DNA of 64,000 bases from a virus (Duplodnaviria > Caudoviricetes). Location of the stretch: positions 1 through 64,000 of the IMG/VR virus record IMGVR_UViG_3300028591_000127. One strand, 5' to 3'. Position numbers and translations under genes: made by a program. A model generated the notes under the pieces. That model did no database searches. It worked only from the letters and a program-made list of their open reading frames with translations, and was not told where the DNA came from. This document shows positions 1 through 24,832 of the stretch, piece by piece (within the stretch, counting starts at the first letter, position 1; every line of letters starts with the position of its first letter).

Positions 1-380
1 TTTTATTTTATTGAATTTATTATTTTATTTAATTATTCAGGGTATATTATTCTATAAGACGAAGTCTCGACCGCGAAGCGGCCTCATCCGTTAAACGAGG
101 GCCTATGTACCGAGTAGGATGAGGAGAGACTGTGTTATTCACCTCGGGCTCAGGTTCTTTCAGCTTTAGATGAAAGGTTCTGTGGCTCCGGGAGGGCGAG
201 GGGAATCACTAGTATATTAATAATTTTCAGTCGTTTCACTCCTTCCATGTCTTTGGTCTCATTACACTTCATTCTTTCCTTCACTCCTTCGTCATTTCAG
301 TCAATCATTCCGTTTCATTCAACAGAAAGCTCTTAGTGGCGAAAAATTTGTGTAACTAAAATGAGCCCGAATCCTTATAT

Positions 381-983
381 TTGATGAAAAGAACAAAGGA
401 ATCCTGTTATTTATGTTTTAATATTGAAGATCCAGAAGAAGAATTGAAATTTCTTTCTATTCTTGAGAAACTTAAAATACCTTATTTTGGTAATCTAGAT
501 GATAGGTTGTGTATAGAATTCGCTGATTATTATATGGCATATTTTTTAGCCAATCATCAGGGAGAAACTGGCCAATTATTTTTATCGAAAATTAGGAAAT
601 ATTCTCAAAATTCAACGCCAGCAAACGAAACAGGTACGGGGGTAATTACAGAATATCATGAAAGGGAAGTTACTAGGTGTGTTTGGCAGGATCCTGAGTC
701 GACAGAACAGGAGGTAGTTGTAAAATCATATGAGCATCTTCCATTAAGCTGTTTCGTTCCTATTATTAATGATAAAGGTTGGTATTCATTCTCAATATCT
801 TCAGTGAGTTCTACTACGATTTCTATTATTAATACTGATTGTATTTGTATTTCTGGTGGTAGTTATTCAAATCTTTGTAACTATTATAGAAGTTTTTCTG
901 ATATTCATAAGTCAGATTTTAATAGCGATAGTGGTTTAATTTTAGAAATCTTAATTATGCGAGGTATCTGTTCCCCTGAGTAA
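381..983 (+). CDS. Hypothetical protein (200 aa), the only sizeable plus-strand gene, directly upstream of the cassette array
   Basis: ORF track; followed by a hairpin and T-run; no motif I recognise. Confidence 0.6.
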   Translation: MMKRTKESCYLCFNIEDPEEELKFLSILEKLKIPYFGNLDDRLCIEFADYYMAYFLANHQGETGQLFLSKIRKYSQNSTPANETGTGVITEYHEREVTRCVWQDPESTEQEVVVKSYEHLPLSCFVPIINDKGWYSFSISSVSSTTISIINTDCICISGGSYSNLCNYYRSFSDIHKSDFNSDSGLILEILIMRGICSPE

Positions 984-1003
984 GGGGGACTTTATTTTTT
1001 TTT
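970..1003 (+). terminator. Intrinsic terminator after ORF 381-983
   Basis: Stem GTTCCCCT(970-977)/AGGGGGAC(983-990), loop GAGTA, then TTTATTTTTTTTT. Confidence 0.7.
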
Positions 1004-1017
1004 CTTGGTATAATAGA

Positions 1018-4000
1018 ACATGTAACAGGTAGTAGCTATCAAATACTTAACTGTTCAGAAGTTAGTAAAATATCTATCTATATTATATATTCTCACGATG
1101 GTTTAATTCATTTTTCTCAAACTGGTCAGCCAACTAAATCTAAACAATACTAACATGTAACAGTAAGTACTTATGGAGATAGAGGGCCTAGTCAAGGGTG
1201 GGCTACAACTCATCCACATAGAGTAGATAATAGAAATGGAATGGTATTAAATAGAGGTGGAGGTGGTTTCCCTAGTAAATCTAACCAATAACTAACATGT
1301 AACAGAAAATACATCTGGAAATAAATGGTCATCCACAGATCAAAGTATAACAAAAGGATTTCTAGTAGTGCTTTCTTATGGAGGACTTACTTCCAGTAAT
1401 TTGACTTTTAAATCTAACCAATACTTATACTACATGTAACAATTAGTATATATAGTCATTGTTCAGGAGAAATGACAAAAAGTCAACCGGTAGAAGTACA
1501 TCAAAGTGAAGGAAAGATTGTATCTCATCAGTCTAGTTGGGATATAGTTAAATCTAACCAATATTTATATATACTACACTACATGTAACAAGTACTAGTT
1601 GGGCTAATGGAGAACCTACCGACCGTAGATCTGCATATCTTATAACTAATTCATATCTAGTTATGCTTGCTCATTCTTATACTCCTAAATCTAACCAATA
1701 CTCGACTAACATGTAACAGGTGACAGATATGCAAGTGTTTTGGAAAACAGTATATATCGTATAATAATGGTTCATCCTAATTCGATGGTAGGAACTTTTT
1801 ATGATCCTGGTAGTTTTGCAAATAAATCTAACCAATATTTATACATACATGTAACAGGTAGTAGCTATTATATATGGGCTAGTGGAGATACAGATAATTT
1901 TGCCAACTTCAGACCAAAAATTTCTATGGGAATAAGTAGTAGTATGACCCTAATGTTTTATCCAACATTACTAAAATCTAACCAACACTTGACTAACATG
2001 TAACAGGAGGTACTAATGTTGGAAGACATAATATAGGTGATTGGTCAAGTATAAGACCTTTTATAGTAAATTTATCTCTTGGTATCGTAAATCCAGGTAT
2101 TAGTACAGTTACTTGGATTAAATCTAACCGATACTTTACTATACTACATGTAACAAGCTATAATCTTCATAGTCATGGTACTACTGAACATGATAAGACA
2201 CGAAATAAATCAGTTCATCTTTTCATTAGTTCTAATCTACCTGCAGGAACATATACAGGAGGAGTAGTAGAATTAATTTATAAATCTGCCCAATACTTGT
2301 TGAGACTTCTATACATACATGTAACAGGAGAAGGAAATTTTGTTTCAGTAGCAGAAAAAAGTAAAACGCTTCTGTATTATATTTGGAATTCAACAGTTGT
2401 AAGTCAGACTGGAGGATCCTGGTGGAGAACTAAATCTGCCCAATACTTTTTACAACATGTAACAGCATTTAGTACTTTCATATGGTCCACACAAGAGTAT
2501 ACAAAGAAAGATGCAGTTAGAGTTTGTCTTGATTCTAGAGGAGTATTTGACAATATCAGTGGTAATTTAGCCTATAAATCTAACCGATACTGACATGTAA
2601 CAACAAAGACACTTATTGGTGATAGTGGTGAGACATCTGGGGTTTATACTATCTATTGTCTGGGTGATAGAGGATATGTAATAATACCAAATAATGGATA
2701 TTCTACTGCAGCGATTAAATCTAACCAATACTTACTAACATGTAACAAGTAGTCAGGAATATTCTAGTTGTGAATCAGCAAAGATAATCCCAATGCAAAG
2801 ACATGGTAATAATGTTTATCCAATGACAAGTTATTCCTATACAGGTTGTTATAAATCTAACCGATACTTAATCTACATACATGTAACAGATTACAATTAT
2901 AAAGTATCTTGTTGTGAAGATTCCGCTATTACTACTTGTAGATTTTTAAGTTTAGGTAGTTATAGTGGAACAGGAGGTATATGTTCTTTAGGTGGTTTTG
3001 GTATAAATCCTATTAAATCTAACCAATACTAACATGTAACAACAGACTGGAGATATAATACATGTGAACACTCAAAGCAATCTAGTTATAATTTTATTTC
3101 GGGTGGACGAATTTATCCAGGCAACGGATATTACAAATCTAACCAATACTTACAACATGTAACAGATAGTATATGGTGTATTGGTGAAAATATTGATGGA
3201 AAACGGGGAGCATATTTTATATCTGGAAGCTTAATAGGTATTTACCATGCTGGTGGGTATAAATCTTACCAATACTTAATCTGCATACATGTAACAGGTT
3301 GGCGAGACTTAGCTCTTCCATGTTGCAATGAATCTAGTAAAAAGATTAATACTATAATTGGTGATAATACAAAAAACATAAGACATGACTGGCCTGGTAA
3401 AATATTAAATTACCAATACATGGACTTACTACATGTAACAGTTTATAACTATGATGGTTATCCTTGGAATGTTTTCTGTTGCTCAGTAGATAAGACAACT
3501 GATAGGTCACATACTTTAGCTATGGGTAATTCACTAAGACCTACAGAAAATCAAGTTAATTTAATTTATTACAGTAATCCTACTGGTCAAAAATCTACCC
3601 AATACTAAAATAATACATGTAACAGGTTATAATCAAGCTAACATTAGATTTAGTGTAGATGAAAATAGTACGGTATATGGTAAGACTGCAGGTCCTTGGA
3701 ATGGTGAGGTAGGAACAAGCGTAGGGAGTATGAGAATATTTAAATCTACCCGATACTTTAAACTAACATGAAATAGGTAGTGTTAATAGAAGATCTTTAA
3801 ATGAGTTAACTAAGGAAAGGTCTAACTTTATTAATGTTTCTAATGGTTATGTTGAAATGAGTGAATATACTGCTTTTAAATCTAACCAATACTTTCCATA
3901 CATGTAACAGATAGTAATAGGTGGCTGTCTGCAGAGCAAAGTGCATCAAGAGGATCTCTAATAGTACTTTCTTCTGGATCATATCTTTCCAGTAGTACTT

Positions 4001-6756
4001 ATAGTAGTACTTCAAAATCTAACCAATACTCATACTACAACATGTAACAGAAGGTATTGGTAGACATAGTAGTTCTTGTGCATCAAAATTATATGATTGG
4101 ACAAAGAGTAATGGTGGTAATCATATTTGGAATGGATTTGCTAATATAGGTAAATCTACCCAATACTCTCTACATGTAACAGGGGGTACTAATGTTGGAA
4201 GACATAATATAGGTGACTGGTCAAGTATAAGACCTTTTACAGTAAATTTATCTCTTGGTATCATAAATCCAAGTGCCTCTAGTGCTGTTAGCTGGACTAA
4301 ATCTAACCAATACTTTTCATACATGTAACAAGTCCAGGTAATAGATGTTCAGCAATAGAGAAAAGTAAAATTTATATCAATTATCTGTGGAATTCCTCAG
4401 TTTGGAATACCTCTGGAGGATCTGCTATGAGACCTGAAAAATCTAATCAATACTAACATGTAACAGATAGTACAAGATCCTCTAATGGAGAATGTAGGTT
4501 CAATGCTTGTTGTACAACTCTTAATAGTATAAATGTTTATGCTTCTTATGCATCTGGAGGACATACATATAAATCTGCCCAATACTTAGTCCCTACATGT
4601 AACAGGTAATAATGGTGTTTCTGGTGAATGTTACCGTACACTAGCTTATAGGACTAATGGTTTTGTATTTTGTGAAAATAACGGACTCAAGGCATATATT
4701 TATAAATCTAACCAATACTGACATGTAACAAACAATTCTGCCACGATAGCTAGTAGTATGGAAACTGGAAGGGGTAATAGTTGGTGTCTATATCAAGGAG
4801 TTAGAAGGGATTTTGTAAGTAAATCTAGCCAATACTGAGATCTCTACATGTAACAGGTACTAGTCAATTTTTTATGGTTTCAAGTAAGGATAATAGTAAG
4901 ACATCATATTCCGTGGTTAATTACTTTGGAAATAGCAATTTTATAGCTTCTGTAAATAAATCTAACCAATACAGGGATCTCTACATGTAACAGATAGACA
5001 ATGGGCTTTTGGAGAACAAGCCAAACCAATGTGTTATTCTATAACATATAATATGATGGTACTTATTCAGCATCCAGGAAATTACAAATCTAACCAATAC
5101 TTACTAACATGTAACAAGCAGTTTCTGTAGAAGTAGTTGTGGAGAGGGTGAGAAAAGAGCTATGCATTGTTTATTCATCAATCTTTATTATAATGATAGG
5201 GGTGATGTATTCACTGCTAGTTATATGAAATCTACCCGATACTGGCAAACATGTAACAGATAGTACTAAGAGATTTAGTCAAGCTGAAGTAAGTAATTTA
5301 TCTGTTTTTTATATTGCTGTTAGTACTGGAATAGTCCATTATCGGGATCCTATCGGTAGTCATCCTTTTTCTAAATCTAACCAATACAGACATGTAACAG
5401 GAGGAAATAGTAATTATTACTTCTCGGGAGCTGGTGAAATAAGTAAAGTATCTCCAGTTAGATTTAAAGCTAATGATCTGTCTATATTCTTTATTGGAGC
5501 AGGAGGATCCTCTAATTCTAAATCTCACCAATACTAACTAACATGTAACAGGTAGTTATAATAGAAGTAGTTGTGGAGAAGGTGAAAAAAGAGCTATGTA
5601 TTGTTTAATTAATAATGGTAGTCAAATAGCCATTGGTTATTATACTACTATTAGTAAATCTAACCAATACTCTCTACATGTAACAGGAGGAAGTAATTAT
5701 CTTTTCATCTGGGGAGCTGGTGAGACGAGTATTGTATCTCCAGTTAGATTTCAGGCTGAATTGTCCATATCATTCACTGGAGGAGGGGAGCCAGTAATTA
5801 TAAATCTAAACAATACTTACACTAACATGTAACAAGTTTTAGAAGTCATGCTAAACAGGTTAATAATGGTAAAATAGATTCGATTGGTAATTCTGCTTCT
5901 ATTAGGGTAGATGGTTTAGCAAATTATAAATCTAACCAATACTACTATAATATACATGTAACAGGTTATAGTCACTCTATGTATTCTAGGTCCTGTATTA
6001 AAGAATATAGTAATTCTCATAGTACACAGGTTTTTCTATATCAAGGAGAAGTTGGTAGTTCTGCACTTGGAGTTGGTTATTCTAAATCTAACCAATACAT
6101 GTAACAGATAGTGGTATGAGTAGAATAGTATTTGCTGCAGCAGGCGATAAATATACTAGTATGCCGCTTCAGTGTAGATCTGAGGGTACTGTTCTTACTG
6201 AATTTGCAGTACATAAGTTTAAATCTAACGAATACTAACATGTAACAGGTAATAGATATAGTCATAGTTCAGGAGAAACTTCAAAAGTTCATCCGGGAGG
6301 AATAGCTATTGGACAAGCAATCGTTTATATTCAGAATGGATGGATAATGAAATCTCACCAATACTAACATGTAACAGTAAGTACAAGAAGATTTAGCTGT
6401 TGTGAAATTTCTAAAATATTAATGTGGTATGTAAATTTAAACAACGGACTTATCTTATTAGGGGCTGGAAATTGTTATAAATCTACCCCATACTTGTTGA
6501 AATTTTTAACATGTAACAGGTAATAACTATGTATGGAGGCATTCTTTGTATGAACTGTCTAAAACTATAATTTATGCATTTTCTTTAGGTAGAGGAGGAT
6601 TTTTTGGTGGTGGAGGTGAGCAAATGAAATCTAACCGATACTTATAACATGTAACAATAGATACTTTGTTTGGTCTTAGTGAAAGTAGTCAGAAACAGAC
6701 CACCTCTCTTTCACTGGTATTAGGAAGAACTAATGTTAATAATAAATCTAACCAAT
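1018..6756 (+). repeat. Array of 41 tandem variable cassettes (alternative C-terminal variable regions for gene 8215-15423)
   Basis: ACATGTAAC starts at 1018,1153,1295,1432,1581,1709,1847,1996,2146,2317,2455,2593,2738,2879,3032,3155,3287,3431,3615,3766(degenerate ACATGAAAT),3900,4040,4172,4321,4456,4595,4721,4846,4983,5107,5249,5390,5541,5676,5825,5954,6097,6238,6367,6509,6647. Each unit ends in an AAATCTAACCAATAC-like motif and translates as HVT-(variable)-KSxxY. Confidence 0.95.
4595..4719 (+). repeat. Cassette 26: exact copy of the variable segment currently in the gene
   Basis: 125/125 identity to the reverse complement of 8259-8383. Confidence 0.97.
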
Positions 6757-6758
6757 GT

Positions 6759-7047
6759 AGGTCTCAACAAGTATCGGTTAGATTTATAACAAGCTTGTCC
6801 AGCCCCAGTTATATTTCCATTCCCCCATAGAATACTCATTTCCACCCGGTTCCTCTCTTTAATGTTCCATACACCATTATTACCTCCTGTTACATGTATG
6901 TATAAGGACCTTAACAAGTATTGGCTAGATTTACTTAAATAATTAGGATTACCATCAGTTGATATCGTCGAACCGGAAAGAGTGCCACGACAAATTACTG
7001 ATACTTCATGAATACTGGTAATTCTACTACCACTTGTTACATGTGCC
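6759..7047 (-). repeat. Two further cassettes in inverted orientation (starts 7044 and 6897)
   Basis: Minus-strand translation AHVTSGSRITS...KSSQYLLRSLYIHVTGGNNGVW...KSNRYLLRP (ORF 6720-7049); same anchors. Confidence 0.9.
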
Positions 7048-7053
7048 ATGAAT

Positions 7054-7098
7054 AAAAAAAAAGAAGTGAAGTCTAGCTTTTACACTAGGCCTCACTTC
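7054..7098 (-). terminator. Intrinsic terminator ending the minus-strand tail operon before the array
   Basis: Stem GAAGTGAAGTCTAG(7063-7076)/CTAGGCCTCACTTC(7085-7098), with a 9-nt U-tract on the minus strand (A-run 7054-7062). Confidence 0.75.
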
Positions 7099-7102
7099 CG
7101 GA

Positions 7103-7345
7103 TCAAGAAATTATGACAGATCCATACATTATATTTTTAAGTTGTCCATCATTTCCCAAAATAAAGTACAGGTATTTGTCTATGGGTTCTTCTGGTATTG
7201 TTTCTGTTACCTCAATGCCCACAACGCTTTTAGAGATTATTCCGAGATTTGATATTTGTTCTATTCCGGTCTCAATATTATTCAGTTTTTCTGCGTCGAT
7301 TGGTGTATTTCCGTCGACCCATTTAGTTTTATTATACTCTATCAT
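7103..7345 (-). CDS. Small phage tail-associated protein (80 aa)
   Basis: YNKTKWVDGNTPIDAEKLNNIETGI resembles a motif common in phage tail/baseplate proteins; ATGA overlap with upstream gene. Confidence 0.6.
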   Translation of the reverse strand: MIEYNKTKWVDGNTPIDAEKLNNIETGIEQISNLGIISKSVVGIEVTETIPEEPIDKYLYFILGNDGQLKNIMYGSVIIS

Positions 7346-7668
7346 TTTTTACCACAGATAACTTTTCCACAAGTACTATTACCACAGATGGCGGGGCAGA
7401 TTTTAGTTACGCTAAGTATTTGAAGATCTTTTAGGTAGAATTCTTTCCCATTAAGTCCCTCCAGTGTTACTACCGTGACTCCCCGTCCTGTTTGTGTTTC
7501 AATTTTTATTTTGACGTCTTTAATAAGGAACACTTCATCGGTTGGCACGCCCCAGGATCCTGTTCCTACAGCTTTAGACGTAATTTTTGCTGTTCCCCCA
7601 ATAAGATTCCCATAGTTCCAGTTACCATAGGGTGAGGTATTAGCTAAAATTTTATTATTCTTCATCAT
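7342..7668 (-). CDS. Hypothetical protein (108 aa) with Cys-rich C-terminus
   Basis: ORF track; overlaps both neighbours in the operon. Confidence 0.6.
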   Translation of the reverse strand: MMKNNKILANTSPYGNWNYGNLIGGTAKITSKAVGTGSWGVPTDEVFLIKDVKIKIETQTGRGVTVVTLEGLNGKEFYLKDLQILSVTKICPAICGNSTCGKVICGKK

Positions 7669-8146
7669 AGAGGTTATCGATCCATTCGTCCAATTTATCT
7701 TTATCGTCCCAGCAATTTTTCAGGCAATCGTCAATAAAGTTCGAGTATTCATTTCTGAACTGGTAATATTCTTCTTGTGTTTCGAACTTATATCTAGTAT
7801 TATCTCCGAGTCTAATTTCCGGCAAGAATTGTTCGTTTTCTTTCACGGCATCATAGTTTCTTTGATAATTGATCTGATTTTCTGTTGATAGCCAGACCGG
7901 GTGTGTTTTCCATGTGAATCCCTCTAGTATATTCTGGTCGCACCTATCATTGAGGTAGTTTTCTAGTCTGGTTTTTATGGTTGTTTTGTCTGGTTTTTGG
8001 CCTTTAAACAGAAACTCAACCCAGGACCACCCTTTATCAGCGTTTTCCAGAACATCATAGGCCAGTACAGTATAGATTTGATTTCCAACCATAAAATGTT
8101 GAATCTTATCTGGTTTCTTTTCTGTGCTATAAATTCTTTCTATCAT
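7655..8146 (-). CDS. Putative tail-fibre assembly/chaperone protein (DUF4376-like); paralog of 16014-16514
   Basis: ILEGFTWKTHPVWLSTENQINY matches ILSGFTWRGKSVWLSAENQRNF; lies directly downstream of the adhesin. Confidence 0.6.
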   Translation of the reverse strand: MIERIYSTEKKPDKIQHFMVGNQIYTVLAYDVLENADKGWSWVEFLFKGQKPDKTTIKTRLENYLNDRCDQNILEGFTWKTHPVWLSTENQINYQRNYDAVKENEQFLPEIRLGDNTRYKFETQEEYYQFRNEYSNFIDDCLKNCWDDKDKLDEWIDNLYDEE

Positions 8147-8214
8147 TTTGTTATGGTTTTAAAGGGGATTAGGGAGAGTTTGTCTATTTCCCTCCCTTTC
8201 CCAGATTAAGTTTA

Positions 8215-11200
8215 CTATAGTTCAGGCCGCCAGTAGAAAGCTGCCACAGGTCTCAACAAGTATTGGTTAGATTTATAAATATATGCCTTGAGTCCGTTAT
8301 TTTCACAAAATACAAAACCATTAGTCCTATAAGCTAGTGTACGGTAACATTCACCAGAAACACCATTATTACCTGTTACATGTGCCCCCCAGCCGACTAC
8401 GGAGGCTGATCCCACCGCTTGAGCCCTCCTTACCAGGATGTGGTAGATAGGCCTAACTGGTTCGGGTAGTGCTTCGAGGGTAGATATCCTCATATTGCCC
8501 ATTTCGTTTTTATTGAAGTAGGTATCATTTCTTGAGGTTCCATTATTGTTGAGCCACCATTGCCTACATATTTCCCCCAGGTCAGGGAGGTACCACTGCC
8601 CCCGCTTGAAGAAGCTTGAGCGATTCGAGCCCGCCCCTGTTGTAGGTTCCCACTGTCTACACTTCATAAATGCTGGATAGAACATAAACTGATAAGCAGC
8701 ATTACCGTTATTAGTTAATTGCGCCGCAGGCCAAGACTGTTGGTATTGCGTAGTATATGTAGTTGGTGTCATATCTTTGAAGTAGTAAGAGGACATATTC
8801 TCTTCCCACAGATCAGTTGTGTCATCATCTGAGGGTCTAATGAAAGGATATTTTTCAGCCCATCTTCCCTGTTCACCTTCACGTCCTGCTGTAGTATCAT
8901 CTTTACTTATCCATTGAACAGCACCAGAATCAGGATTAGTGATTGTGGTTCTAGCTAAGACATATTCAAAGAATTTATAGACTTTATCAGCTACAGTATC
9001 GGTAGCAATTTGTCCTGGATTTCTATATTTTGTCTTAGTGGCGACATCAATAGAGGTTGAGTAAGTCATTGTTCCGTTAGTATTGGAAGCAGCATTTAAC
9101 CAGCCAGCGGTATAAGGATTAGCGTAGGCGACATTATTAGGATTAGGTAGCCAAACTCTATTACCCTCGCCGTCGGTCATTTCCATATTACTAGCTGACA
9201 TAGTCCAGTTAGAACCGCCAATAGTACGTGAGGATCCTGCTAAATTAGAATTAATAACTTCAACGCTACCGCCACCTGCTCTATAGGGTGTAATACCGTT
9301 ATAGATGGCATTATCGAGTGTTGCAGCGGAAGAGCTAATAGTTTCATCAGACAGTCCTAGCCTATACATCGAGTTAACGTAGGTAGCAAAAATAGTATCG
9401 TATCCACTATTATTGCCTGGTCCCCAATAATCAGAGCCGATTGAGTTATAGGCATCAACTCTAACATCATAGATTTCAACACCTTCTCCAGCATTTTGTC
9501 TAGTGGACATAAATACAACACCAGTTAAGATTTTACCTGTACTATACTTATCATCACAGCAACCATCATTCCAAGCAAAGTCCCCTACTTGTGGTGCTCT
9601 CTTAAAGAATCCAATAATGACATCGAGTTTTGTCGTTCTATTCTCGACTGGAGTATTACCAGTAGGATCAGTTCTGACAATGCTGACTCTCAGACAGAAA
9701 CGTCTTTGCTGTTGGTCAGGAGACTCAAGGAAGTTAGGATTATTCAGAACATTAGCAGAATCAAACTCCATTGTTAAGGATTGCTGGTCTGTTATAGTTA
9801 CGAGACCACTAATAGAGGTTGCAGTGTTGGCTCCAGTTACTCCAGACTCAGAATTAATAACTCTCGGTGCATATTCAGAAGAAGAATCCTCAAAATCTTG
9901 GTGAATATAAACACTAGTATCGTCATCCTCCACTGTTAAGAAGCTCCAAGTAATAGCAGGTTTTCCATCAATAATATCGAAGTCATTAAAGTTTTCGGTA
10001 GGTGGAATAATGCTACCTCCTTGATAAATATACTTTGTTACACCACCGACAGTCTTAGTAGTCAGAAGATTACCATAGATAAAGTTAGGAATACTAATTT
10101 CACCTCTAACACCGGGAGACCATCCATTATTACCTCCAGAGTAGATTTGGTGATCAACGTAGAGAGGGTTATTAATATCTGTAATATCTCCATATTTATT
10201 AATCAGTTCAATCTTCTCTGCCCACTTAAGATATCTATAACCTACTGTTGAATTTGCCTCATTATCGTGGAGATAGATTTTGCCACTAAAGGTTGTTCTA
10301 GCTGATAGTGTTGAATCTCCAACTTTAGCGTAGTAGCAGAGAACGTCAGTACTAACTATCTTATTAGTACTACTTCCCCATCTAACATTAATAAGGTTAC
10401 AGTTTTCAAGTGGCGGTACTCCTTCTCTAGTTTTATCTCTATAAATGTTATAAGCAATATTATAGGTACTAAAGACAGCCTCATTCAGGTTTCGTCCGTT
10501 AATAGTTAGGTCTGTTAGGTTTGGATATCCCGAATAGGTTTCAGCTCCAACAGTATAATCGATGGCCTGGAAGGCGAAGCTAGTGATATTAGGTAGATCA
10601 GAGAGACTAAGTGTTGTCAAGGTTCCTGGCAGATATAGTTCAGTCAGAGTATCCGTTCTAGGTAGATTAACTTGGCTTAAGTTAGTTCCTCTTAGGTCTA
10701 GTTTCTGGAGTCTATATTGTTCAGTAAAATTACCTACACCACTAATACTGCTAACTCCACTCAGATCAAGAACTTTTATGAGTTTTGTATTTTCGGTTAT
10801 ATTAATATTGGTAGGTCTAAATACTAAGCCATCACCAGAAGCATCAAACTCAACAAGTCTTTTACCATTGAGAGTAAAGGTGGCATTTGGGTCTGTTATG
10901 AATCTATTGAAGGATCCCAGCTTTCTATAATAGTTAACACCGCAAAGAGCCAGAGTAGTGTCACCGGATACAGTACCAATAACAAATGGTAAGGGATTTT
11001 CTGTTTCACCTACTATCTTAATAGGCATACCTTGTGCATCGACTCTCCAACCTCCAGGTGCAAGTCTTACGTTATCTGTTACCACTGAAGAGCCAAATCC
11101 ACCCGAGGGATAGAGCCATTGATGTGGAACAAGGTTGAGTACTACTTCCAAATTACTGAGACCGCTAGGCATTTGACCAGTTCTAACACTGAGTGATCCT

Positions 11201-14200
11201 GAAGCAGCAGCACCAGAGAATTCTCCATAGGTACAATATGATGAGAGGTAGATAAGTCTTCTCTTCATAAATTCCTTTTCAGCCTGGAGTTGATCACCAA
11301 GAGACTGAGTGATAGGCATAATACCGGGAGGGTCGAAGGTACCCTGTTCAGTGGCAAGTTGAGCTGTTTCGTATCTGATTTTAGCAGTCTCGTTAAAAGC
11401 AATTGCAGGGAAGTATTCCTGAATATTATAGAAGTATTTTTGACAGCAACCACACACAGAGGTTTCAACTCCTCCAGTAGCAAGAGCTGTCATTCCTGCC
11501 AAGATACTAGACATCATACTCTGCAATCTCGAGTTAGCTTTTCTATCGGTTACTTGATTAGCACCAGTTCCAATACCGTAAGCTCTTTCAATGAGATCTT
11601 GGAGAACGTTAAACTGTCCTTCCCAGTGAGTACCAGTGGGATTACCTTGGATATCACGACCCATAATATCTCTCTCTTCAACCCAATATGGTTTACTTTG
11701 CCAACCTACATTATTAGTTCTGATAATAGTATCAAGGTCGTCCTGTGATAGAGTTATCTTACCAGTACCAGGATCAACAACGTAATAGGTATTCTTAGAT
11801 CTATTATCGGTTCCAGCAATCAGCTTAATAAATTCGTGATGGAAGAGAAGGTCATTAAGAACGAAGAAAGATTCAACATTCAATGCCACTCCATACTTAG
11901 CCTGTGAAACGTTACCAGTTTTAAAGTCCTCAATAATGGCACTTATAATCTGATTGTTTGCTGTTTCTACTGAAGAGGATAGTGTGAGATTCCATCTAGT
12001 ATTAACTTTTACTTCTTGCCATTCTCCCCAAACAGGTCTAGTAATATTATAAGTGTTTCCTCCCCAAGTTACAGATGCGGTAGCTGTACCTGTTACGCTA
12101 CGATATGTGGATCTAACCCACTTTCTTTGAGCATAGTTATATCGATATAGATTATACTGTGAACTTGGTGATTCAATATACTCTGAGTCATTTGAGTCAT
12201 TAGTCATCCAATAACAATAGCTGGTATTGATAGGATCGTATTCAGTATTTTGTGAAGGATCCTCTGTCCAAGCTCTCAGATTAGCTATTGTATCTTCCCA
12301 AGGTTTAATAAAGCAGTTATGTTCGTATAACCAGTTCCATGCATTCTTAATGTAACGCTCAGCTGATAAGGTACCAACAGTTTCTTCCGTTTCAAGCTCT
12401 TCCGGATAAGGTAGCTCTTCACCAGACGTATTAACCCAGGTATTACCCGCATCGAAATTAATATTTTTCAGACCATTATAATAGTAACACTCAGCGTCGG
12501 GATTATAAGTAACTTCCTCATTCCAGGGCACTCTCATGTCAGTTAAGGGATTATTATTATCTGCTCCCTCAAACATACCAAAGAGTTTCATAGCCTTATC
12601 ATAACCCCAAGTTGGTTTATCCATCTTACCAGGTCCAAAGGTACAGAGTCCTTGGAATACTGGCTGGGCATCCTCCGGCGTCTGAACAAAGTAGAGGAAA
12701 GGAAGTTCATAAACAGCAACACGGGCCTTAGAATTAGTCTTCATTATCGTATTACCGTCACTACTCGTCAGACAGATACGCCTATATAGATCATTATATA
12801 GGGCGGTAGCACCAGCTTTATGAGACTGCATTGAAGAGGCGTAATTAATCTTACTAACCAATTTCTTAGCTGCAGGGATATCACTGGTCATGGCGTATTT
12901 CTGACCTACTTCCTCACCGTTCAAATTAGTAAATCCTCCAGTTTCACCTTTCCATTGCCACTGATTATTCCACTCGTAATATGTCTTGGCTGTAGTACCC
13001 TGACCCTTCATTGTAAGTTCAGTCAAGGTTCCAGAATGGTCTTTATCTTGAGTATAGGTACCATCAGCATTTTTATTGACAATACTAATCTCGAGATAAC
13101 CTTTTTGGTCCTGTTGTGTTGCTGCAGAGTGATTACTTACATTATAACCATGCCAGAGTAAGCAGTTATATTGTTCTTTAGCAAGTGAATAATTGATATA
13201 ACCATTAGCAGTAATACTATTAGCTACTTTAAAGGCCTGTTTCTGAATTGCTGAAGGTAAGGATGACATATAATCCTGCTCAACATCACGACTACTAAGG
13301 CCTCCATAGCTACCAGTATAAATTCTAATTGAATAAATATCAATATCAGCATCGGGAGCACCAATTCTTATACCACCATGACCACCAGAGCTAATAAACT
13401 CATTTGCAGAACTATTATTAAATTTAAATTCGCGATTAATAACACCATTAATAAAAACTCTACCATAAGGTACTTCACCCGAGTTACCAGCCAGAGATCT
13501 TACATTATGAACAACGTTAAAGGCAATATGTGTTCTAACATCTTCTTGCCAAGCGAAGTTTTGCTGTTTCTCTGAGGTATTGCTAGTAGTCATGAATACA
13601 CCCTCTAGCGGTTTAAGTTGAATACCTTTAGTACAGTTTCCATTAGCATCTTCTTCACAGATTCTGAAAATGGGAGTATCTTCATCTGTTATATTACTAA
13701 CCATGAAATCTACTTCAATAGTTACATCAGAATTACTATCCTCAGCTCCTATATATTGTCCAAAAGGTTCATAGTCAATAGTAACATATCTATTACTTGG
13801 GACTCTCAACACTGTTTGTCCTACGGATCCTGTTACGCTATTAGTATCTTTAATCCAGCCATCAGAAGTCCAGTTAAATCCTTCAAAGTTTGCTGATACT
13901 GGTTGGCCATTAGCAGCATTGATAATTGTAGCTCTATTTTCTGCTGTTTCTGAATTACTTCTAGATTTTGGATTTAAGATAAAGGATGCGTGAGCTGTAG
14001 GGGTAAAGTCTTCTGAGTTCTCTACGACAACAGGTATTCTATTTCCAGTAAAACCTGACAACATATTGGATCCTTCAATATCAGTAGCTCTCAAGTAGGT
14101 CTGTATAGTTCTAAGGACTTTCTCTTCAATCTCAAGAGTATTGTTAAAGGTATATTTCGTAAGAGACTGTGCAGCTGTTTGTTCAAAGGTAAGATACTCA

Positions 14201-15423
14201 GTTGATCCAGTACTATTACCAAAAGCAAATCTCACATATCCCTCATCGTTGCTGGTCGGTCCACAATAAAGGGCATACCTAAAGAAATCGGTAGCTACGT
14301 AATTAGATGCTTGACTGACACAATTTTGAATTAATAATCTAGGAACACCATCATACTGGGACTCATCATTATCATCATAATTTCTCTGAACCATGACCTG
14401 ATTAACAACCCTGGCTGATTCTTTAGAAGGATCACCACTAACAGAAAGCCAAGCAGTAATAGTATGAACGCCATGACTTAATAGGAACTTCTTTTGACTT
14501 TCATTAGAAGGTTCTGTATATGTGTAGATGTATGGTGTCTCTAAGTATGAAGTAGTTCCAAGACCTATTACTGTGATTTCTTTAGTACTTGCAGTGCTTC
14601 CAGGACTGTCCATATCACCAGTAGAAGTTGATATTTGAATATGAAGATCCTTACCAACTGCACCCCCAATATAATAGCGGAAGAGATATGTATTATGGTC
14701 AGTGTCTGATCCGTCCTTCATACCAATAATAGGTCTTTCCCAATTGCCAGCAAACTCAATACTAAGTGTTGTTTTTGTTATACTACTAATCTGAACGGCA
14801 TTAGAGCTTGCTTGCATATCATCATTATTGACATTGACAATAAATCTCATCTGATATCCTACAACATCAGCGTCAACGTATTCAGAAATGTCATAGGTTT
14901 CATAATCATTCTCATCATCAATACTGGCTGAATTTATATTTTTTGACGCCTTTAGAACCCAAGATGAATTACTAGAAGTACGACCATAAATATTAAGGGT
15001 GCCAGTAACAGGGTTATCTACTGGTGCTGCATCAGCCTCCTTAAGTGTTGATGTAAATCTAATACTTGCTGATACCATTCCATCAATACTAACAATAGTA
15101 CTCGGGGTATCAACAAGCTCCAATTTAAGAGTAGTAACGGTAGCACCTCCACCGCCACCACCAGCAGCAGGGAGTACGATGTTTTCTAAGATTAAATTTG
15201 TCTTAGTAGGATCTCCCACCCACTCTTCATAATCCTCTATTGATGCGAAGGCCAGCATGTGATATTGGTCGTCGCTCCCCTTTTCTGGTTGTGAAAAGTA
15301 TCCAATTTTATTATCCTTATGATCTTTTAGGTACCTCTTTATAAACTCTTCTACACTAGTTCCGGCATAGTTTTCCCAAGAGGTTTCAAAATCAGGGATT
15401 AAAGTATTTATAATATCTGCCAT
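8215..15423 (-). CDS. Large putative adhesin/tail-fibre protein (2402 aa) with LamG-like and LRR-like segments and a C-terminal CLec-fold domain; expression locus of the cassette array
   Basis: Paralog of the DGR target (KINYASSMQSHK, GTDNRSKNTYY); C-terminal WYLPDLGE...HVT...KSNQYLLRPVAAF. Confidence 0.85.
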   Translation of the reverse strand: MADIINTLIPDFETSWENYAGTSVEEFIKRYLKDHKDNKIGYFSQPEKGSDDQYHMLAFASIEDYEEWVGDPTKTNLILENIVLPAAGGGGGGATVTTLKLELVDTPSTIVSIDGMVSASIRFTSTLKEADAAPVDNPVTGTLNIYGRTSSNSSWVLKASKNINSASIDDENDYETYDISEYVDADVVGYQMRFIVNVNNDDMQASSNAVQISSITKTTLSIEFAGNWERPIIGMKDGSDTDHNTYLFRYYIGGAVGKDLHIQISTSTGDMDSPGSTASTKEITVIGLGTTSYLETPYIYTYTEPSNESQKKFLLSHGVHTITAWLSVSGDPSKESARVVNQVMVQRNYDDNDESQYDGVPRLLIQNCVSQASNYVATDFFRYALYCGPTSNDEGYVRFAFGNSTGSTEYLTFEQTAAQSLTKYTFNNTLEIEEKVLRTIQTYLRATDIEGSNMLSGFTGNRIPVVVENSEDFTPTAHASFILNPKSRSNSETAENRATIINAANGQPVSANFEGFNWTSDGWIKDTNSVTGSVGQTVLRVPSNRYVTIDYEPFGQYIGAEDSNSDVTIEVDFMVSNITDEDTPIFRICEEDANGNCTKGIQLKPLEGVFMTTSNTSEKQQNFAWQEDVRTHIAFNVVHNVRSLAGNSGEVPYGRVFINGVINREFKFNNSSANEFISSGGHGGIRIGAPDADIDIYSIRIYTGSYGGLSSRDVEQDYMSSLPSAIQKQAFKVANSITANGYINYSLAKEQYNCLLWHGYNVSNHSAATQQDQKGYLEISIVNKNADGTYTQDKDHSGTLTELTMKGQGTTAKTYYEWNNQWQWKGETGGFTNLNGEEVGQKYAMTSDIPAAKKLVSKINYASSMQSHKAGATALYNDLYRRICLTSSDGNTIMKTNSKARVAVYELPFLYFVQTPEDAQPVFQGLCTFGPGKMDKPTWGYDKAMKLFGMFEGADNNNPLTDMRVPWNEEVTYNPDAECYYYNGLKNINFDAGNTWVNTSGEELPYPEELETEETVGTLSAERYIKNAWNWLYEHNCFIKPWEDTIANLRAWTEDPSQNTEYDPINTSYCYWMTNDSNDSEYIESPSSQYNLYRYNYAQRKWVRSTYRSVTGTATASVTWGGNTYNITRPVWGEWQEVKVNTRWNLTLSSSVETANNQIISAIIEDFKTGNVSQAKYGVALNVESFFVLNDLLFHHEFIKLIAGTDNRSKNTYYVVDPGTGKITLSQDDLDTIIRTNNVGWQSKPYWVEERDIMGRDIQGNPTGTHWEGQFNVLQDLIERAYGIGTGANQVTDRKANSRLQSMMSSILAGMTALATGGVETSVCGCCQKYFYNIQEYFPAIAFNETAKIRYETAQLATEQGTFDPPGIMPITQSLGDQLQAEKEFMKRRLIYLSSYCTYGEFSGAAASGSLSVRTGQMPSGLSNLEVVLNLVPHQWLYPSGGFGSSVVTDNVRLAPGGWRVDAQGMPIKIVGETENPLPFVIGTVSGDTTLALCGVNYYRKLGSFNRFITDPNATFTLNGKRLVEFDASGDGLVFRPTNINITENTKLIKVLDLSGVSSISGVGNFTEQYRLQKLDLRGTNLSQVNLPRTDTLTELYLPGTLTTLSLSDLPNITSFAFQAIDYTVGAETYSGYPNLTDLTINGRNLNEAVFSTYNIAYNIYRDKTREGVPPLENCNLINVRWGSSTNKIVSTDVLCYYAKVGDSTLSARTTFSGKIYLHDNEANSTVGYRYLKWAEKIELINKYGDITDINNPLYVDHQIYSGGNNGWSPGVRGEISIPNFIYGNLLTTKTVGGVTKYIYQGGSIIPPTENFNDFDIIDGKPAITWSFLTVEDDDTSVYIHQDFEDSSSEYAPRVINSESGVTGANTATSISGLVTITDQQSLTMEFDSANVLNNPNFLESPDQQQRRFCLRVSIVRTDPTGNTPVENRTTKLDVIIGFFKRAPQVGDFAWNDGCCDDKYSTGKILTGVVFMSTRQNAGEGVEIYDVRVDAYNSIGSDYWGPGNNSGYDTIFATYVNSMYRLGLSDETISSSAATLDNAIYNGITPYRAGGGSVEVINSNLAGSSRTIGGSNWTMSASNMEMTDGEGNRVWLPNPNNVAYANPYTAGWLNAASNTNGTMTYSTSIDVATKTKYRNPGQIATDTVADKVYKFFEYVLARTTITNPDSGAVQWISKDDTTAGREGEQGRWAEKYPFIRPSDDDTTDLWEENMSSYYFKDMTPTTYTTQYQQSWPAAQLTNNGNAAYQFMFYPAFMKCRQWEPTTGAGSNRSSFFKRGQWYLPDLGEICRQWWLNNNGTSRNDTYFNKNEMGNMRISTLEALPEPVRPIYHILVRRAQAVGSASVVGWGAHVTGNNGVSGECYRTLAYRTNGFVFCENNGLKAYIYKSNQYLLRPVAAFYWRPEL
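8259..8383 (-). other. Exchangeable variable region (expression site) within the adhesin gene
   Basis: Bounded by the same two anchors as the array units; identical to cassette 26. Confidence 0.9.
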
Positions 15424-16013: not shown

Positions 16014-16514
16014 TTATAATTCTAAACTATCTACCCACTTGGTTGCTGCATCTTTATTCCGCCAGCCTTCATTGAGTGTTTGATTAATAAATTCTACTCC
16101 TTGCAGATAAAATTCAGTAAGATCTTCTACGGTAGTGAATTCATGATAGATCGGCAATTTATGTTCATCCTCACCAATCTTAAAGGTTATTGGCAGAGAA
16201 TCACCATTAGTAATCATCGCCGCTCTTTGCCCTTCTGAAAAATTACGTTGATTCTCAGCTGACAACCATACACTTTTCCCTCGCCATGTAAAACCTGATA
16301 GGATCTTCTTATCAGTCTGAGAGTCGATATCAACTAGGAGCGCATTAAGAATATCATCTTTTGTTACAGACCCACTTGTCTCTATAGTAACACTAATAGC
16401 ACTCCAAGTTCCGTCTGGATTCTCTTTAGCATCATAGTTGATAGTAGTATATACTGTTCCTGGACCAAAAGATTTTATTATGGTGTCCGGTTTCTCTGAA
16501 AATGTTTCCATCAT
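16014..16514 (-). CDS. Putative tail-fibre assembly/chaperone protein (DUF4376-like); paralog of 7655-8146
   Basis: Shared GFTW..VWLS.ENQ.N motif. Confidence 0.6.
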   Translation of the reverse strand: MMETFSEKPDTIIKSFGPGTVYTTINYDAKENPDGTWSAISVTIETSGSVTKDDILNALLVDIDSQTDKKILSGFTWRGKSVWLSAENQRNFSEGQRAAMITNGDSLPITFKIGEDEHKLPIYHEFTTVEDLTEFYLQGVEFINQTLNEGWRNKDAATKWVDSLEL

Positions 16515-17926
16515 AATTTTAATTTATATTTCTTTTTTAATTTTACTATCTCATATGGCCCGACAATGTACATTTTCTCCCAGAAGCCCATTCCCATCTT
16601 GTCAATAGCTTTTCGTCGTTTTCGATAAGTTCTTCTTCTCCGACAGAATCCAAGATATGAGTTCATAACGCACTCTACATACCGGCAGTCTGCTGGGGTC
16701 ATATCTCCCTCTTTCATCAACTTATCAATGTCTTGAAATCTTTTTCTCATGTGTCGAATAGTTCTATTACTAAGATATAGTCTTCCGGGTTTAATATACG
16801 TTCCAACAAACAATACTCCGTGAGATACTGGTTGAAAATATCTCTTTTCTTTATGCATTGTCAGCCCTAGTTTATCTTTTAAGAAATTTTCTATTTTAAA
16901 AATAGATTCTTTTAGAAACTTTAAATCATCACTTACCAGAATAAAGTCATCAACAAATTGTGCTACACAATAATTTTTACCACGAAATAGCCAATGTACA
17001 TAGCTGATGAAGTGAGACATGAGAAAGTTAGCAAATAACTGAGTAGTAAGGTTGCCAATAGGAAGTCCTGTTTCCATAGTAAATAGTGATTTACGAGGAT
17101 TTAACTCATTCCACCATTCTGGAGGTGAGTTTATAATACAGTCTTTTTCTGGGTGATGCATTACAACCTCACGAACTAAGTATAGTAAGAGATTCTTATA
17201 TTCACCGTTATACTTCCGCTTTATAAATCGCTCCAGTAGGCACCAGAGAAGATCTTTATTGATGGACATAAAAAATCCCTCTAAGTCCCCTCTAAACACC
17301 CATGCTGGACGGCGATAATTGTTGGAAATACTTCGCATACCTTCTGCTACGTGTGTTACGGCTTTGTCTGTCCCAAACCCTTTGCGACAATTAAAAGACA
17401 CATTACCTTGTGATTCAAATCGTTTTTCAAACAATGGAGTTAGTCGAAGGGCTATCCAATGGTGTACGATTCGGTCTCGGAAAGAAGCTGCAAAAACTTC
17501 TCGCAGTTTTGGGTATTTAACTAGGAAGCAGGTAGATGTTCCAGGCTTATAAGTACCTTCCCACATTTCATTTGCTAAAACTGGTATATCTACGTTCGCT
17601 TTAGTCATATATTCAACAGCTTGTGCAGAGCGCATCTTTCCACGAAGACAGTCATGGTATGCTTCCCATACAGAATTAATAAAAGATTGTGGCACGGGAT
17701 AATCGGTAAACGCTGAAACAGCCCAAACAACGTTCGAGTTGTACTTATTGTTGTTGTTGTTCACGGTACCATTCTGGAAGTTGACGTTCCATGCGTTCGT
17801 AGCATTGTTCTCGGAACACGACCAGAAGTTACTGTTTCTATGCGACTCTGCAACATAGTAGCTGCCACACTTTTCTTGTGAAGCAGCGAGTCGCCCGTTT
17901 AGCGGATTATATGACACTCTAATCAT
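16511..17926 (-). CDS. DGR reverse transcriptase (ORF includes the TR at its 5' end; alternative GTG start near 17695)
   Basis: REVFAASFRDRIVHH, CRKGFGT, GDLEGFFMSI, GLPIGNLTTQLFAN, FVDD; adjacent TR and Avd. Confidence 0.95.
   Translation of the reverse strand: MIRVSYNPLNGRLAASQEKCGSYYVAESHRNSNFWSCSENNATNAWNVNFQNGTVNNNNNKYNSNVVWAVSAFTDYPVPQSFINSVWEAYHDCLRGKMRSAQAVEYMTKANVDIPVLANEMWEGTYKPGTSTCFLVKYPKLREVFAASFRDRIVHHWIALRLTPLFEKRFESQGNVSFNCRKGFGTDKAVTHVAEGMRSISNNYRRPAWVFRGDLEGFFMSINKDLLWCLLERFIKRKYNGEYKNLLLYLVREVVMHHPEKDCIINSPPEWWNELNPRKSLFTMETGLPIGNLTTQLFANFLMSHFISYVHWLFRGKNYCVAQFVDDFILVSDDLKFLKESIFKIENFLKDKLGLTMHKEKRYFQPVSHGVLFVGTYIKPGRLYLSNRTIRHMRKRFQDIDKLMKEGDMTPADCRYVECVMNSYLGFCRRRRTYRKRRKAIDKMGMGFWEKMYIVGPYEIVKLKKKYKLKL
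17706..17836 (-). ncRNA. DGR template repeat (TR)
   Basis: 131 bp aligning without gaps to 18542-18672 with 15 mismatches, 14 at TR adenines (coding strand); AAC-rich. Confidence 0.95.
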
Positions 17927-18360
17927 AACAGACTATAATTACCCTGGCCATTGTTATAATCGCGCAACGCTATTGCTTGTGCAACGATTCCACGTGCCAC
18001 TTTCTTTATTTTATCTTCTACTGGTTTTCCTATTAGTCCTTTACGGAATAATATGTGTATATCGTCTTGGACATCCTCAACGAAGATCCGCACCATGTTG
18101 AGATATTCAACTCTCTGACTGGGGTCATATACAGAGTGGGATAGTCCAATACATTTTTTAGCCTCGCTTACTGTCAAAAGAATACTATCTATGAATTTTG
18201 TTAGTTTACGAGGCACTAAGTCATATAAATTAACAATATTATATTTTAATTCAATCGCATCTCGATAGATAGACATTTGTCGTAAAGTGCGATGATTTCG
18301 CTTTTTTGAATTGCTAGCCTCTACAATTTCTTGAGGAATTATTACGCCTTTCTGTTCCAT
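17923..18360 (-). CDS. avd: DGR accessory variability determinant (Avd-like four-helix protein)
   Basis: 145-aa basic, helical-looking protein located between target gene and TR/RT. Confidence 0.75.
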   Translation of the reverse strand: MEQKGVIIPQEIVEASNSKKRNHRTLRQMSIYRDAIELKYNIVNLYDLVPRKLTKFIDSILLTVSEAKKCIGLSHSVYDPSQRVEYLNMVRIFVEDVQDDIHILFRKGLIGKPVEDKIKKVARGIVAQAIALRDYNNGQGNYSLL

Positions 18361-18482
18361 AGTGCTTCAAGAATTCCATTTTGTTCAGAAATAATTACTT
18401 TATTAGATGGTGTCCCGTAGGATTCACTTCTTATTTTCTTTTTGTTAATATCTACTGACATCAAATTAATAGTTTTTAAAGC

Positions 18483-18509
18483 GGACGACGGCTAACAAAG
18501 CCGCCATCC
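18483..18509 (-). promoter_or_regulatory. Hairpin downstream of the VR (candidate DGR target-recognition stem-loop)
   Basis: GGACGACGGCT-AACAA-AGCCGCCATCC imperfect inverted repeat about 14 nt past the stop codon. Confidence 0.5.
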
Positions 18510-18522
18510 ACAAAGCAAAAAG

Positions 18523-24500: not shown

Positions 24501-24801
24501 TATCTGTATCGGAGAGTAAAGTCCAGTCACTGTATGCATCAGCATCTTTGAACATTACCATACAGAGTCCTGAGTCATCGCTGTTGGCAACAACTTTAAC
24601 GTACCCAACTTTACTATTGAGAGCTTCATCTTGCGACGCATTCTTTAACTCTATTTCGGAAACTTTTGTTTTGATAGCAGACTCTATTACTTCATGACTT
24701 TTACCCCATTCTTTACCTACATTATCTCCATCCTGGTAAATACCTCCCCAAGCATCCTCAAAATTAGTAAGTGGAGTATTATCTACAATTTTCTTAGTCA
24801 T
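18523..24801 (-). CDS. DGR target: large adhesin/tail-fibre protein (~2092 aa from MTKKIV) with C-terminal CLec-fold domain
   Basis: VR at the 3' end; WLLP motif upstream of it; paralog of 8215-15423. Start moved from 24882 because of the small ORF 24833-24937. Confidence 0.9.
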   Translation of the reverse strand: MTKKIVDNTPLTNFEDAWGGIYQDGDNVGKEWGKSHEVIESAIKTKVSEIELKNASQDEALNSKVGYVKVVANSDDSGLCMVMFKDADAYSDWTLLSDTDKWGEEGLALIISYDNLPTAEGGDIYTVQLTLQETPASIQANDNVTVNIKGTSTITYAAGGTDNISEDLVVTIQTRTNASAAWVNRDQIVIPANSLSWTEISLKPFLTSGTNYVRMKAAGEYASSVWRSFTLSVVNLSLVPNSLLEFPITGSTLSLNYLVGGAVAKTLQMEFGTGIGTSFRAQYSYLNGDPGCSRNLGTGTNTTTGMTFEFTDPSTLSTLLSGGVHTVRARLYVNESVSTPWVESQYIVADGSRKLLSINNLNTSFDNWSEVHFFDWAVYCGDEEQMTVVFRLMDENSENSYATWTFTAENNQMYNLSVQLGVEIDDVDITEFIGHMYIEDGEGNQLVSPLSLVFSNSATNQPTRGANFAINPSDRNNSEEHPDTIVNSITGNTVEASFTGFNFTTDGWMEVLRNLDDQSSNAEKIKSLHIPAGRNLDINYNPFQYFVSGNNAGYSMTLEIDFRTYAITDDTVPVLQIGTEAVDGKIWGFEMLPTEAYIMTQGKRALDDQNVSWAEEMRTRLSINVVYNLGSLNLIRIFINDKIEREITYSATDRFTDSTNVSTIIGSSAADIDIFSIRCYENQALSTAEVMQNYKSSLATTSEKITFQEANDILDDNGNISWSKCLGKYNIIGHTGHLPKYGDENKGKTTGVSIEIKQVGDPTHSGKITELESSGQGTTAMTYYDWNQQYKITDNSVFTSDDETTHAAGSGFALKEGEALAKKLVGKINFASSMQSHKLGLTWIYNDLFKQLITNGVITRPSQMSLYANARIAVLEKPFLFFHRETENDPWVFKYLMTFGAGKGDKPTFGFNKTSTPDMLMVEGANNDRPLALFRIPWNDDITYSPDDEAWMYNGQKQLDFGFGVTSKDSNNKEYPSSENAINAQKAFFNYVYLHYSRLNVFTGTLTQLRASESVDTTKLYWVTSNDPNIVGSSRYDLYRYDELTQQWVDAGIEKLGTGSYEKLNLRTQYENFCTSLGITAVEWSEGQWGNINNIIISTRQRDFHETASNYIHIDDALYHSCFVKLYAGTDNRAKNTYYYTDPVTLKIRHEQDDVDTTLKTNNVGQQRKPYFVEEHDKNAADEFYWQGEESGYYNLLEEAFETEMTAMMNNMFTAMAQLSGTVLRFHESYLLSTQDYFPGIAYNEQARLVYEAAARAQASGDYKNDSAQAITQSCGSQRWSEYQWLRDRIMYISSWCEYGEFAGSSTAANGMSWRGKSGAIYNFQLTPAKWLYPRVGSDSSNYPASANGKRVRVAAGETISYPAITLSSDSWIAIRGIDYYSDLGDMNIGLSSQQGTFSFSGKRLRRITINPNGTDTNQFLATGVEISNAINITEFIMRGVNTVSGALNLTKCTRLTNLDLRESSFNLVQFANGVPLVTARLGSTMTRLELSYINTLQTLTLEGVSSLSAVVLNSIGAIGRNIVEQCYSGNAPLTELTLTNVTWQSVSKELLMWLANLPSCTLTGSINMLVAAQLSLDEVLMLYRKYGNIQDPSSTLYVNYTKVAVQHLYITGQKYFKQTGTTQFGITADTGNNIVFINEKPALNWQFVKLDENQQEVEDPDAAAFIQITDSVEGTANIVSLNTSGDETRYKLKVTAQLANGDTVSAYWKVGAFDRLPKRGDFAYADGSFDDDFHYDKSIVGYALRVTNGTNSLSIDVVAKRATVVTSTNSALNTSALPWGIQQGTDSNTIDATTCSAIASQSGVTLNSFALGNSGTGDYDSQTKTIAMSDRSKAIIKGWIANLWNTVDLTAPEFSTEQTYDRGQTVTYEGIIYLCKTAVTEAGAFDSTKWSTLSVAQKQLMEWAKQKAVQLELPRSTTELGDMMLALNYLENAFGATNPQRFYMLFYPAGYACQLYVPETKDGETLNVQYGRGHWLLPACGMLYKIYQFYHASRNKVNNSTPNKAYANEDQSLADANYPLMANILNRLNEAGVNTTYYPMWNNSYFWSCSEYNAAYAWPVGFQNGTVNYPDNKCNSSVVWAVSAFTYALSA
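18542..18672 (-). repeat. DGR variable repeat (VR)
   Basis: Encodes NSYFWSCSEYNAAYAWPVGFQNGTVNYPDNKCNSSVVWAVSAF; adenine-specific differences from TR. Confidence 0.95.
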
Positions 24802-24832
24802 ATTTGTTATCTTTATATCATTTTTATTATCT

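Follow-up and report, generated by a model that had tools for sequence, protein, structure and literature searches.

A probable silent-cassette library of spare loops for the lectin-fold tip of a tail protein in a jumbo phage genome

Why would a tailed phage carry 43 short coding fragments, all framed by the same two short anchors, beside a single tail-protein gene whose last loop is framed in the same way? The question is raised by the IMG/VR record IMGVR_UViG_3300028591_000127 (Duplodnaviria; Caudoviricetes), of which the first 64,000 nt were analysed (the window, to which all coordinates refer), whereas the anchor searches covered the whole 109,071-bp record. An original prediction made from the letters of this DNA had read the array as a store of silent cassettes for the expressed gene and, short of a second expressed allele, our analysis supports that interpretation. 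We consider it probable that the array is a silent-cassette library of spare loops for the tip of a C-type lectin (CLec) fold, and that these loops are swapped by DNA recombination at the anchors. In kind this would be silent-cassette variation, here in a virus and by way of short anchors only.

Anchor parsing confirmed the predicted 43 silent units between two short anchors. Forty-one of them lie on the plus strand (main array, 1018-6758), inverted with respect to the target gene, and two on the minus strand in the gene's orientation (7044-6918 and 6897-6771, spanning 6771-7044). Each main-array unit consists of anchor A (ACATGTAACA), a loop of 29-50 codons and anchor B (AAATCTAACCAATAC). Exact copies of anchor A number 40 on the plus strand (1018-6647) and three on the minus strand (at 6897, 7044 and 8383 as read), to which a degraded copy at 3766 must be added; anchor B is exact in 15 units and is found with at most two mismatches 40 times on the plus and three times on the minus strand. 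In the whole record, neither anchor was found exactly outside the array and the expression site. The units had been sized at about 115-150 bp; measured from anchor to anchor they span 112-175 bp, their loops count 29-50 aa, and linkers of 0-20 nt separate them. Two peptides that the prediction had quoted for their CLec-like spacing are indeed encoded at 1295 and 6367.

Between the anchors, the units are as dissimilar as random DNA: the median loop-to-loop identity is 48%, against 46% for shuffled DNA, the longest stretch common to unrelated units is 14 nt, and no mosaics between unrelated units were seen. The claim that the units share nothing except the anchors thus holds in general and fails for a few related pairs (8/23 at 87%, 32/34 at 74%, 30/33 at 68%). 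The first six bases of anchor B are unchanged in 53/53 units, synonymous sites included. The units had also been said to lack start codons of their own; an in-frame ATG does precede the unit at 7044 (109-aa open reading frame (ORF), 6720-7049), although this unit is located directly behind a terminator.

Where could these loops be expressed? As predicted, the same anchors bracket the last loop of a 2402-aa protein: the expression site (8259-8383, minus strand) comprises anchor A, a loop and anchor B in the 3' end of the gene (residues 2348-2388), and is followed by the constant last strand of the protein. The expressed loop with its anchors is identical to cassette 26 (4595-4719, plus strand) over 125/125 bases, and the donor is still present in mid-array, with a 2-nt linker, as the prediction of a silent donor library implied. 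One expression site and a set of silent partial copies are seen in the 109 of 312 kb covered; the outcome, known from this one exact pair, looks non-reciprocal because the recipient genome retains the full array, and copying would run from the array to the gene.

Every source available for this locus is a metagenome assembly, so that the duplicate of cassette 26 might be a chimera assembled from a mixed population. This explanation is extremely improbable. The joint between the loop and the constant end of the protein is found in a contig of its own (L002); a 311,995-bp European Nucleotide Archive (ENA) contig, deposited in another archive, encodes the same 2402-aa protein and shows an identical spacing (7762 bp) over the array; the Logan contigs break exactly 30 nt inside each end of the loop, as an exact repeat predicts; and a chimera would leave the array itself unexplained. 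The 109,071-bp record is a piece of a jumbo phage genome.

The 2402-aa protein (8215-15423, minus strand) is a tail-module protein of the phrog_24896 family with a C-terminal CLec-fold domain, and it is 29% identical to the 2119-aa product of an upstream paralogue which is the target of a diversity-generating retroelement (DGR). Its nearest annotated relative, at 27% identity, lies beside a reverse transcriptase (RT) in Bacteroides phage BS-TP1, from which a Bacteroidales host is inferred, and its homologues by the hundreds end in a canonical variable region (VR) of the DGR type. The last 460 residues were modelled with AlphaFold2 (mean pLDDT 61.5, pTM 0.66); in the model, the loop makes up two strands and a turn of low confidence that precede the last strand. 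The model matches the C-domain of Legionella Lcl (Z 10.1, rmsd 2.4, 119 residues aligned) and BACOVA_04982 (Z 10.4, rmsd 4.2, 194 aligned) and, weakly, Mtd-P1 (Z 4.4); a Foldseek search with it returned nothing significant, its top row being again the Lcl domain (E 0.42). These results support the view that the loop occupies the VR position of a predicted CLec-fold domain, as had been proposed. Furthermore, a glutamate is found at loop positions 7-14 in 33/43 units, against 11.5 (maximum 22) in shuffles, and the cassettes thus seem to have kept the glutamate of the family's WSSxE motif. A profile of the canonical VR scored seven cassettes above 3 bits, against 1.9 in shuffles, which is a slight excess only. 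Because relatives bear canonical VRs at this very position, the system has probably evolved from what was once a DGR target.

Is the content of the silent units maintained by selection? All the in-frame loops, 42 silent and one expressed, are free of stops (43/43), whereas 1000 shuffles averaged 2.05 and never exceeded 7, and the other two reading frames gave only 3 and 0 stop-free loops. The sole frameshifted unit is cassette 34 (5676-5816, plus strand), which has lost one base near its 3' end; unit 2 of the window has a stop in its last anchor codon, and this stop is tolerated in two strains. Pieces of the array from other strains, collected by exact-protein look-ups from four further public samples, agree with this picture: 44/45 full-length units are in frame and stop-free, one has a damaged anchor (in L048), and one further unit is truncated (in L047). 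The units are thus constrained as coding sequence in the frame of the loop, in the window and in the other strains. Orthologous loops average 92-96% identity, while the neighbouring tail genes of three of these samples are 98.5% identical to those of the window: the silent units evolve faster than nearby genes and their frame is preserved. The 143 substitutions between orthologous units comprise 100 transitions, are spread over the three codon positions (36/56/51) and yield 43 synonymous and 84 non-synonymous codon changes; none is a nonsense change, where about 4.8 were expected, a difference which is overstated since the strains share some of the changes.

Comparison of the locus in related strains, which the prediction had suggested, shows that whole units move at the anchors. 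The order of the units is collinear between strains and whole units differ. Units 4, 7 and 8 are missing from L046; L047 lacks units 7, 8 and 16, has three extra units, and its unit 19 runs into a unit resembling unit 35; L048 has an additional unit between units 18 and 19, and its slot 20 holds an unrelated loop with an unchanged linker behind it. Behind the unit at 7044, L004/L005 and L006 add three units, and this arm counts at least five in related strains. The strain-specific units are scattered over many internal positions, and all of them are loops for one gene; there is no polarised growth at one end of the kind seen in an integron or a CRISPR-like array. A missing unit leaves behind either its first linker (a join from A to A) or its last linker (a join from B to B), so that joins arise at A and at B separately. 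For instance, the unit found between 18 and 19 in L048 is missing from both the window and L047, which have each retained a different one of its linkers. Since unit 6 of L046 and L047 bears the B variant and the linker of unit 8, the joint can be placed in the first ten bases of B.

Some observations on these strains stand apart from the argument. In unit 20 of the window (3766-3892) anchor A is degraded, and the corresponding slot in L048 (1232) combines the same linker with an unrelated loop and an intact anchor. Loop families resembling the units at 1847 and 7044 are represented by several diverged copies in the gene-proximal arm, in L004, L006 and L047, which suggests recent use and diversification in that arm. 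Contig L004 (1886-1930) ends at the last base common to the array junction and the 3' flank of the gene; this end is compatible with a loop like that of the unit at 6897 in the live gene of that strain, or with a second copy of the array, and we do not count it as evidence.

Because the donor and the recipient are an exact pair, the units are constrained as coding sequence and the changes between strains are bounded by the anchors, we infer that the loop of the live gene is switched. In the mechanism we propose, a donor cassette would replace the entire loop of the live gene by recombination at anchor A and anchor B. The simplest route would be a double crossover, or a conversion tract, between co-replicating genome copies in one cell. 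The 3' joint would fall within the ten leading bases of anchor B, leaving the last codons to be supplied by the gene, and unequal use of the same joints between copies of the array would insert and remove units. Since the expressed loop and its own slot are identical over 124 bp, selected changes could also be written back into the library, keeping the silent units intact. The catalyst might be a strand-annealing or RecA-like protein of the phage or a dedicated recombinase binding the anchors, encoded in the other ~200 kb of the genome or by the host. The function of the exchange would be the switching of host-surface receptors. A more specific version, that a dedicated machine (a two-site cassette-exchange recombinase acting at A and B, or an RT copying faithfully from many templates) swaps unrelated loops in a system derived from a DGR target, with possible write-back, appeals to us as a tentative proposal which we would not yet call likely.

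Several points weigh against exchange by recombination at the anchors. A second cassette in the live gene was not seen, the covering contigs all representing one strain: those at the expression site are 100% identical to the window, or carry the same protein and gene spacing, or are broken where the copy of cassette 26 predicts, and protein searches for C-terminal fragments from other strains returned no other expression-site allele. At 10 and 15 bp, the anchors are short substrates for general homologous recombination. In the 109 kb covered of the ~312-kb genome there was no tyrosine or serine recombinase, and the genes called in the 10 kb beyond the array gave no recombinase hit in Pfam. The six-base core of anchor B is altered in two units found later. 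Moreover, slippage between short direct repeats can delete units, so that the loss of units is no proof of programmed exchange, and the putative receptor-binding role is proposed from the fold and the gene context.

Could the loops be written by an RT? A complete canonical DGR is present on the upstream paralogue (16511-24882), all its elements being on the minus strand. The RT (RVT_1; 16511-17926) lies 8 kb from the expression site, and the 5' part of its ORF overlaps the template repeat (TR, 17706-17836); a 145-aa ORF without a Pfam hit (17923-18360) is in the avd position and is named after that position and after the four-helix-bundle gene found at that place in BS-TP1; the VR of the 2119-aa paralogue (18542-18672) differs from the TR at 15 positions, 14 of which are TR adenines, and is followed by a strong GC-rich hairpin (18478-18508, folding z -5.9). 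As a separate observation, this VR is identical in the same-strain assemblies seen. In one such system, the mtd/avd/TR/brt cassette of Bordetella phage BPP-1, a hairpin or cruciform likewise stands just downstream of the VR (PMC3240598). Many-template retrohoming would then consist in the transcription of the array and the faithful copying of one unit into the gene, by the neighbouring RT or by another one. The proximity of the RT, the membership of the target in a DGR family of proteins and the one-way copying typical of DGRs (PMC3240598) speak for this alternative, as does the variation of anchor B, which mostly affects both adenines of its AAC codon and one in CAA (33 changes, compared with 11 at sites other than A); a faithful RT might also be encoded in the two thirds of the genome that lie outside the DNA examined. 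Yet the RT and its accessory gene have a TR/VR pair of their own, which belongs to the paralogue, and the RT has altered 14/41 TR adenines in its VR while none of the loop adenines (0/29) has changed between cassette 26 and the gene. In its usual mode of action the neighbouring RT is an unlikely writer, since 29 unchanged adenines at the 14/41 rate have a probability of about 5e-6. Orthologous units differ from each other by ordinary transitions that affect every codon position and bear no adenine signature. Behind the 2402-aa gene, the hairpin that follows the stop codon is a weak one (11-nt loop, z -1.3). A possible promoter ahead of unit 1 was considered and rejected: its TATAAT has not been conserved in L046, and the array has no more promoter-like sites than shuffles do. 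On balance, we regard many-template retrohoming as unlikely.

As in a DGR, the last loop of a CLec-fold tail protein, in a C-terminal variable part, is targeted, relatives possess canonical VRs and a canonical DGR serves the neighbouring paralogue. Unlike a DGR, which has one TR per VR and mutates adenines, the locus holds 43 unrelated donors, one of which was copied exactly, its loops vary in length from 29 to 50 aa, and no strong hairpin stands behind the target. Among phages, the closest report we found concerns Zeta crAss-like phages, in which up to three TR-VR pairs occur and adenine mutagenesis is retained (PMC12386605).

Could the array instead behave as a shufflon? In shufflons and invertons such as R64 Rci/pilV, Mu Gin and P1 Cin, complete C-termini are exchanged reciprocally at one kind of site by an adjacent invertase. 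A further source on shufflons and tail-fibre invertons is PMC9881135. Applied to the present locus, a site-specific invertase would invert the DNA first at A, then at B, in a single genome, exchanging the loops reciprocally. The inverted orientation of 41/43 units, the palindromic hexamer in anchor A and the conservation of the anchors at the DNA level are in keeping with such a device, and the tail-to-tail junction of the two arms with its two opposite units resembles an old inversion (6742-6787, where the two B anchors form a hairpin with folding z -4.8). A reciprocal intramolecular swap cannot, however, leave the same loop at both sites, and a single flip would sever the constant last strand. 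The strains are collinear in the four samples, without inverted blocks, the junction is at the same place in L006 as in the window, and no recombinase was found near the array in the 109 kb covered. We thus judge inversion very unlikely, even though the locus shares with shufflons the alternative C-terminal parts of an adhesin beside one gene, the short conserved sites and the inverted orientation; it differs from them by its two distinct anchors, the internal position of the loop, the retained donor and the collinear arrays. As for the anchors themselves, they presumably resemble one another (7/10 bases), the integron RYYYAAC boxes and the dif arms, a likeness which may be due to chance.

It might also be argued that the traffic goes the other way, the array being an archive into which formerly expressed loops were captured and from which they would (almost) never return to the gene. 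Many linkers start with a copy of the 3' flank of the gene, as do those of the two minus-strand cassettes, and they look more eroded deeper into the array; the exact pair is compatible with either direction, and some units decay (the frameshifted unit 34, the truncated unit of L047, the damaged anchor of L048). But units hold their slots at 4-8% divergence and almost never lose their frame, which calls for selection on their coding content, whereas storage without use would bring no benefit; and the unit identical to the expressed loop is in mid-array and not terminal. A mere archive is therefore very unlikely, and exchange from the library into the gene remains the reading we prefer.

How does this reading compare with the silent-donor systems of bacteria? 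Neisseria pilE/pilS and Anaplasma msp2 are such systems, the msp2 donors having conserved flanks around a hypervariable region. In Treponema pallidum, tprK is varied by non-reciprocal segmental conversion from 53 silent donor cassettes (PMC10063172), and in Borrelia the silent cassettes of the vls locus are about 90% identical to vlsE, to which they donate random segments (PMC11499132). Like vls, the phage locus combines a single expression site with a contiguous, oppositely oriented silent array, retains the donor and evolves by duplication and loss; with tprK, pilE/pilS and msp2 it shares short silent donors, a single expression site and a non-reciprocal outcome. The original analogy with vlsE and pilE thus holds for the layout. 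It fails for the mechanism, as the phage donors lack internal homology to the expressed loop: homology along the full length of the donor is absent, with only the 10- and 15-bp anchors in common, and the one expressed allele shows no segmental mosaic, its loop having been taken whole from one donor. In tprK, by contrast, seven V regions undergo mosaic conversion. The phage system is moreover borne by a virus and its target is no antigen but a binding tip with a lectin fold; the bacterial systems serve immune evasion, whereas the role we propose for the phage loops is the choice of a receptor.

Our observations point to cassette swapping as a way to change binding, which is known from bacteria and of which we found no description in viruses: a literature search lacking most subscription papers retrieved nothing on a silent-cassette library of a virus. 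The known variation of phage receptor binding proceeds by point mutation, by DGR mutagenesis or by inverting a small number of tail-fibre ends. A store of over 40 loops, unrelated, pre-tested and of varied lengths, would add another route, a large jump in specificity in one step and with no search through non-functional variants. Exchange by way of 10- and 15-bp anchors points to a novel recombination activity, and the system would be categorically new should it prove to use an exchange enzyme of its own or an RT that copies faithfully from many templates. As the library lies beside an ordinary DGR on a paralogue, both strategies can be compared within one genome. The cassettes also constitute a natural panel of lectin loops on one scaffold, with which the bacterial surface glycans they bind might be found. 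Could such arrays be common? Gene callers miss them, and they may well be.

The library seems to be a lineage-specific acquisition by a second adhesin, since related 105-111-kb phages have, in the DNA examined, a single DGR-bearing adhesin and no array; one large adhesin and a TR were found in each of the five relative records searched. No array was present in the fetched DNA of distant relatives (BS-TP1, 23 loci with related RTs and two homologues with odd tips), and searches by protein and anchor patterns revealed no close relative in viral contigs, JGI metagenomes or GTDB genomes, collections from which near-identical records may be missing.

The array is flanked by two terminator-like hairpins with T-runs. 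One (970-1003, plus strand, folding z -1.3) stands between cassette 1 and a 199-aa ORF (384-983, plus strand), which stays beside the array in L046 and has no match in Pfam, PHROG or Atlas; the other (7053-7099, minus strand, z -3.8) closes the tail operon before the first minus-strand cassette. Terminator-like hairpins ahead of both ends of the array fit with silent units and are no proof of silence. No Rfam family was detected in the window between 1 and 19000.

Further afield, about 3.1-3.8 kb to the left of window position 1, the ENA assembly ERZ27256846 encodes a 252-aa SbcC/gp46-like ATPase (AAA_23) and an unannotated 700-aa gene, for both of which recombination functions are possible. 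At its two ends (window 4-201 and the final 198 bases), the 109,071-bp record has inverted repeats about 200 bp long, with 6 mismatches; since the 312-kb contig continues past the left one, these repeats are internal and would be either assembly breaks or the bounds of a large invertible block. A 438-aa homing-endonuclease-like ORF lies within the tail region (53083-54399). Finally, at least 14 small or medium ORFs on the minus strand at ~79,000-106,300 of the 109,071-bp record, outside the window, share the N-terminal motif M-I-I-x-R/K-x-K-x-F/Y-S, perhaps a capsid-targeting signal for packaged proteins; in some of them a shared acidic stretch follows.

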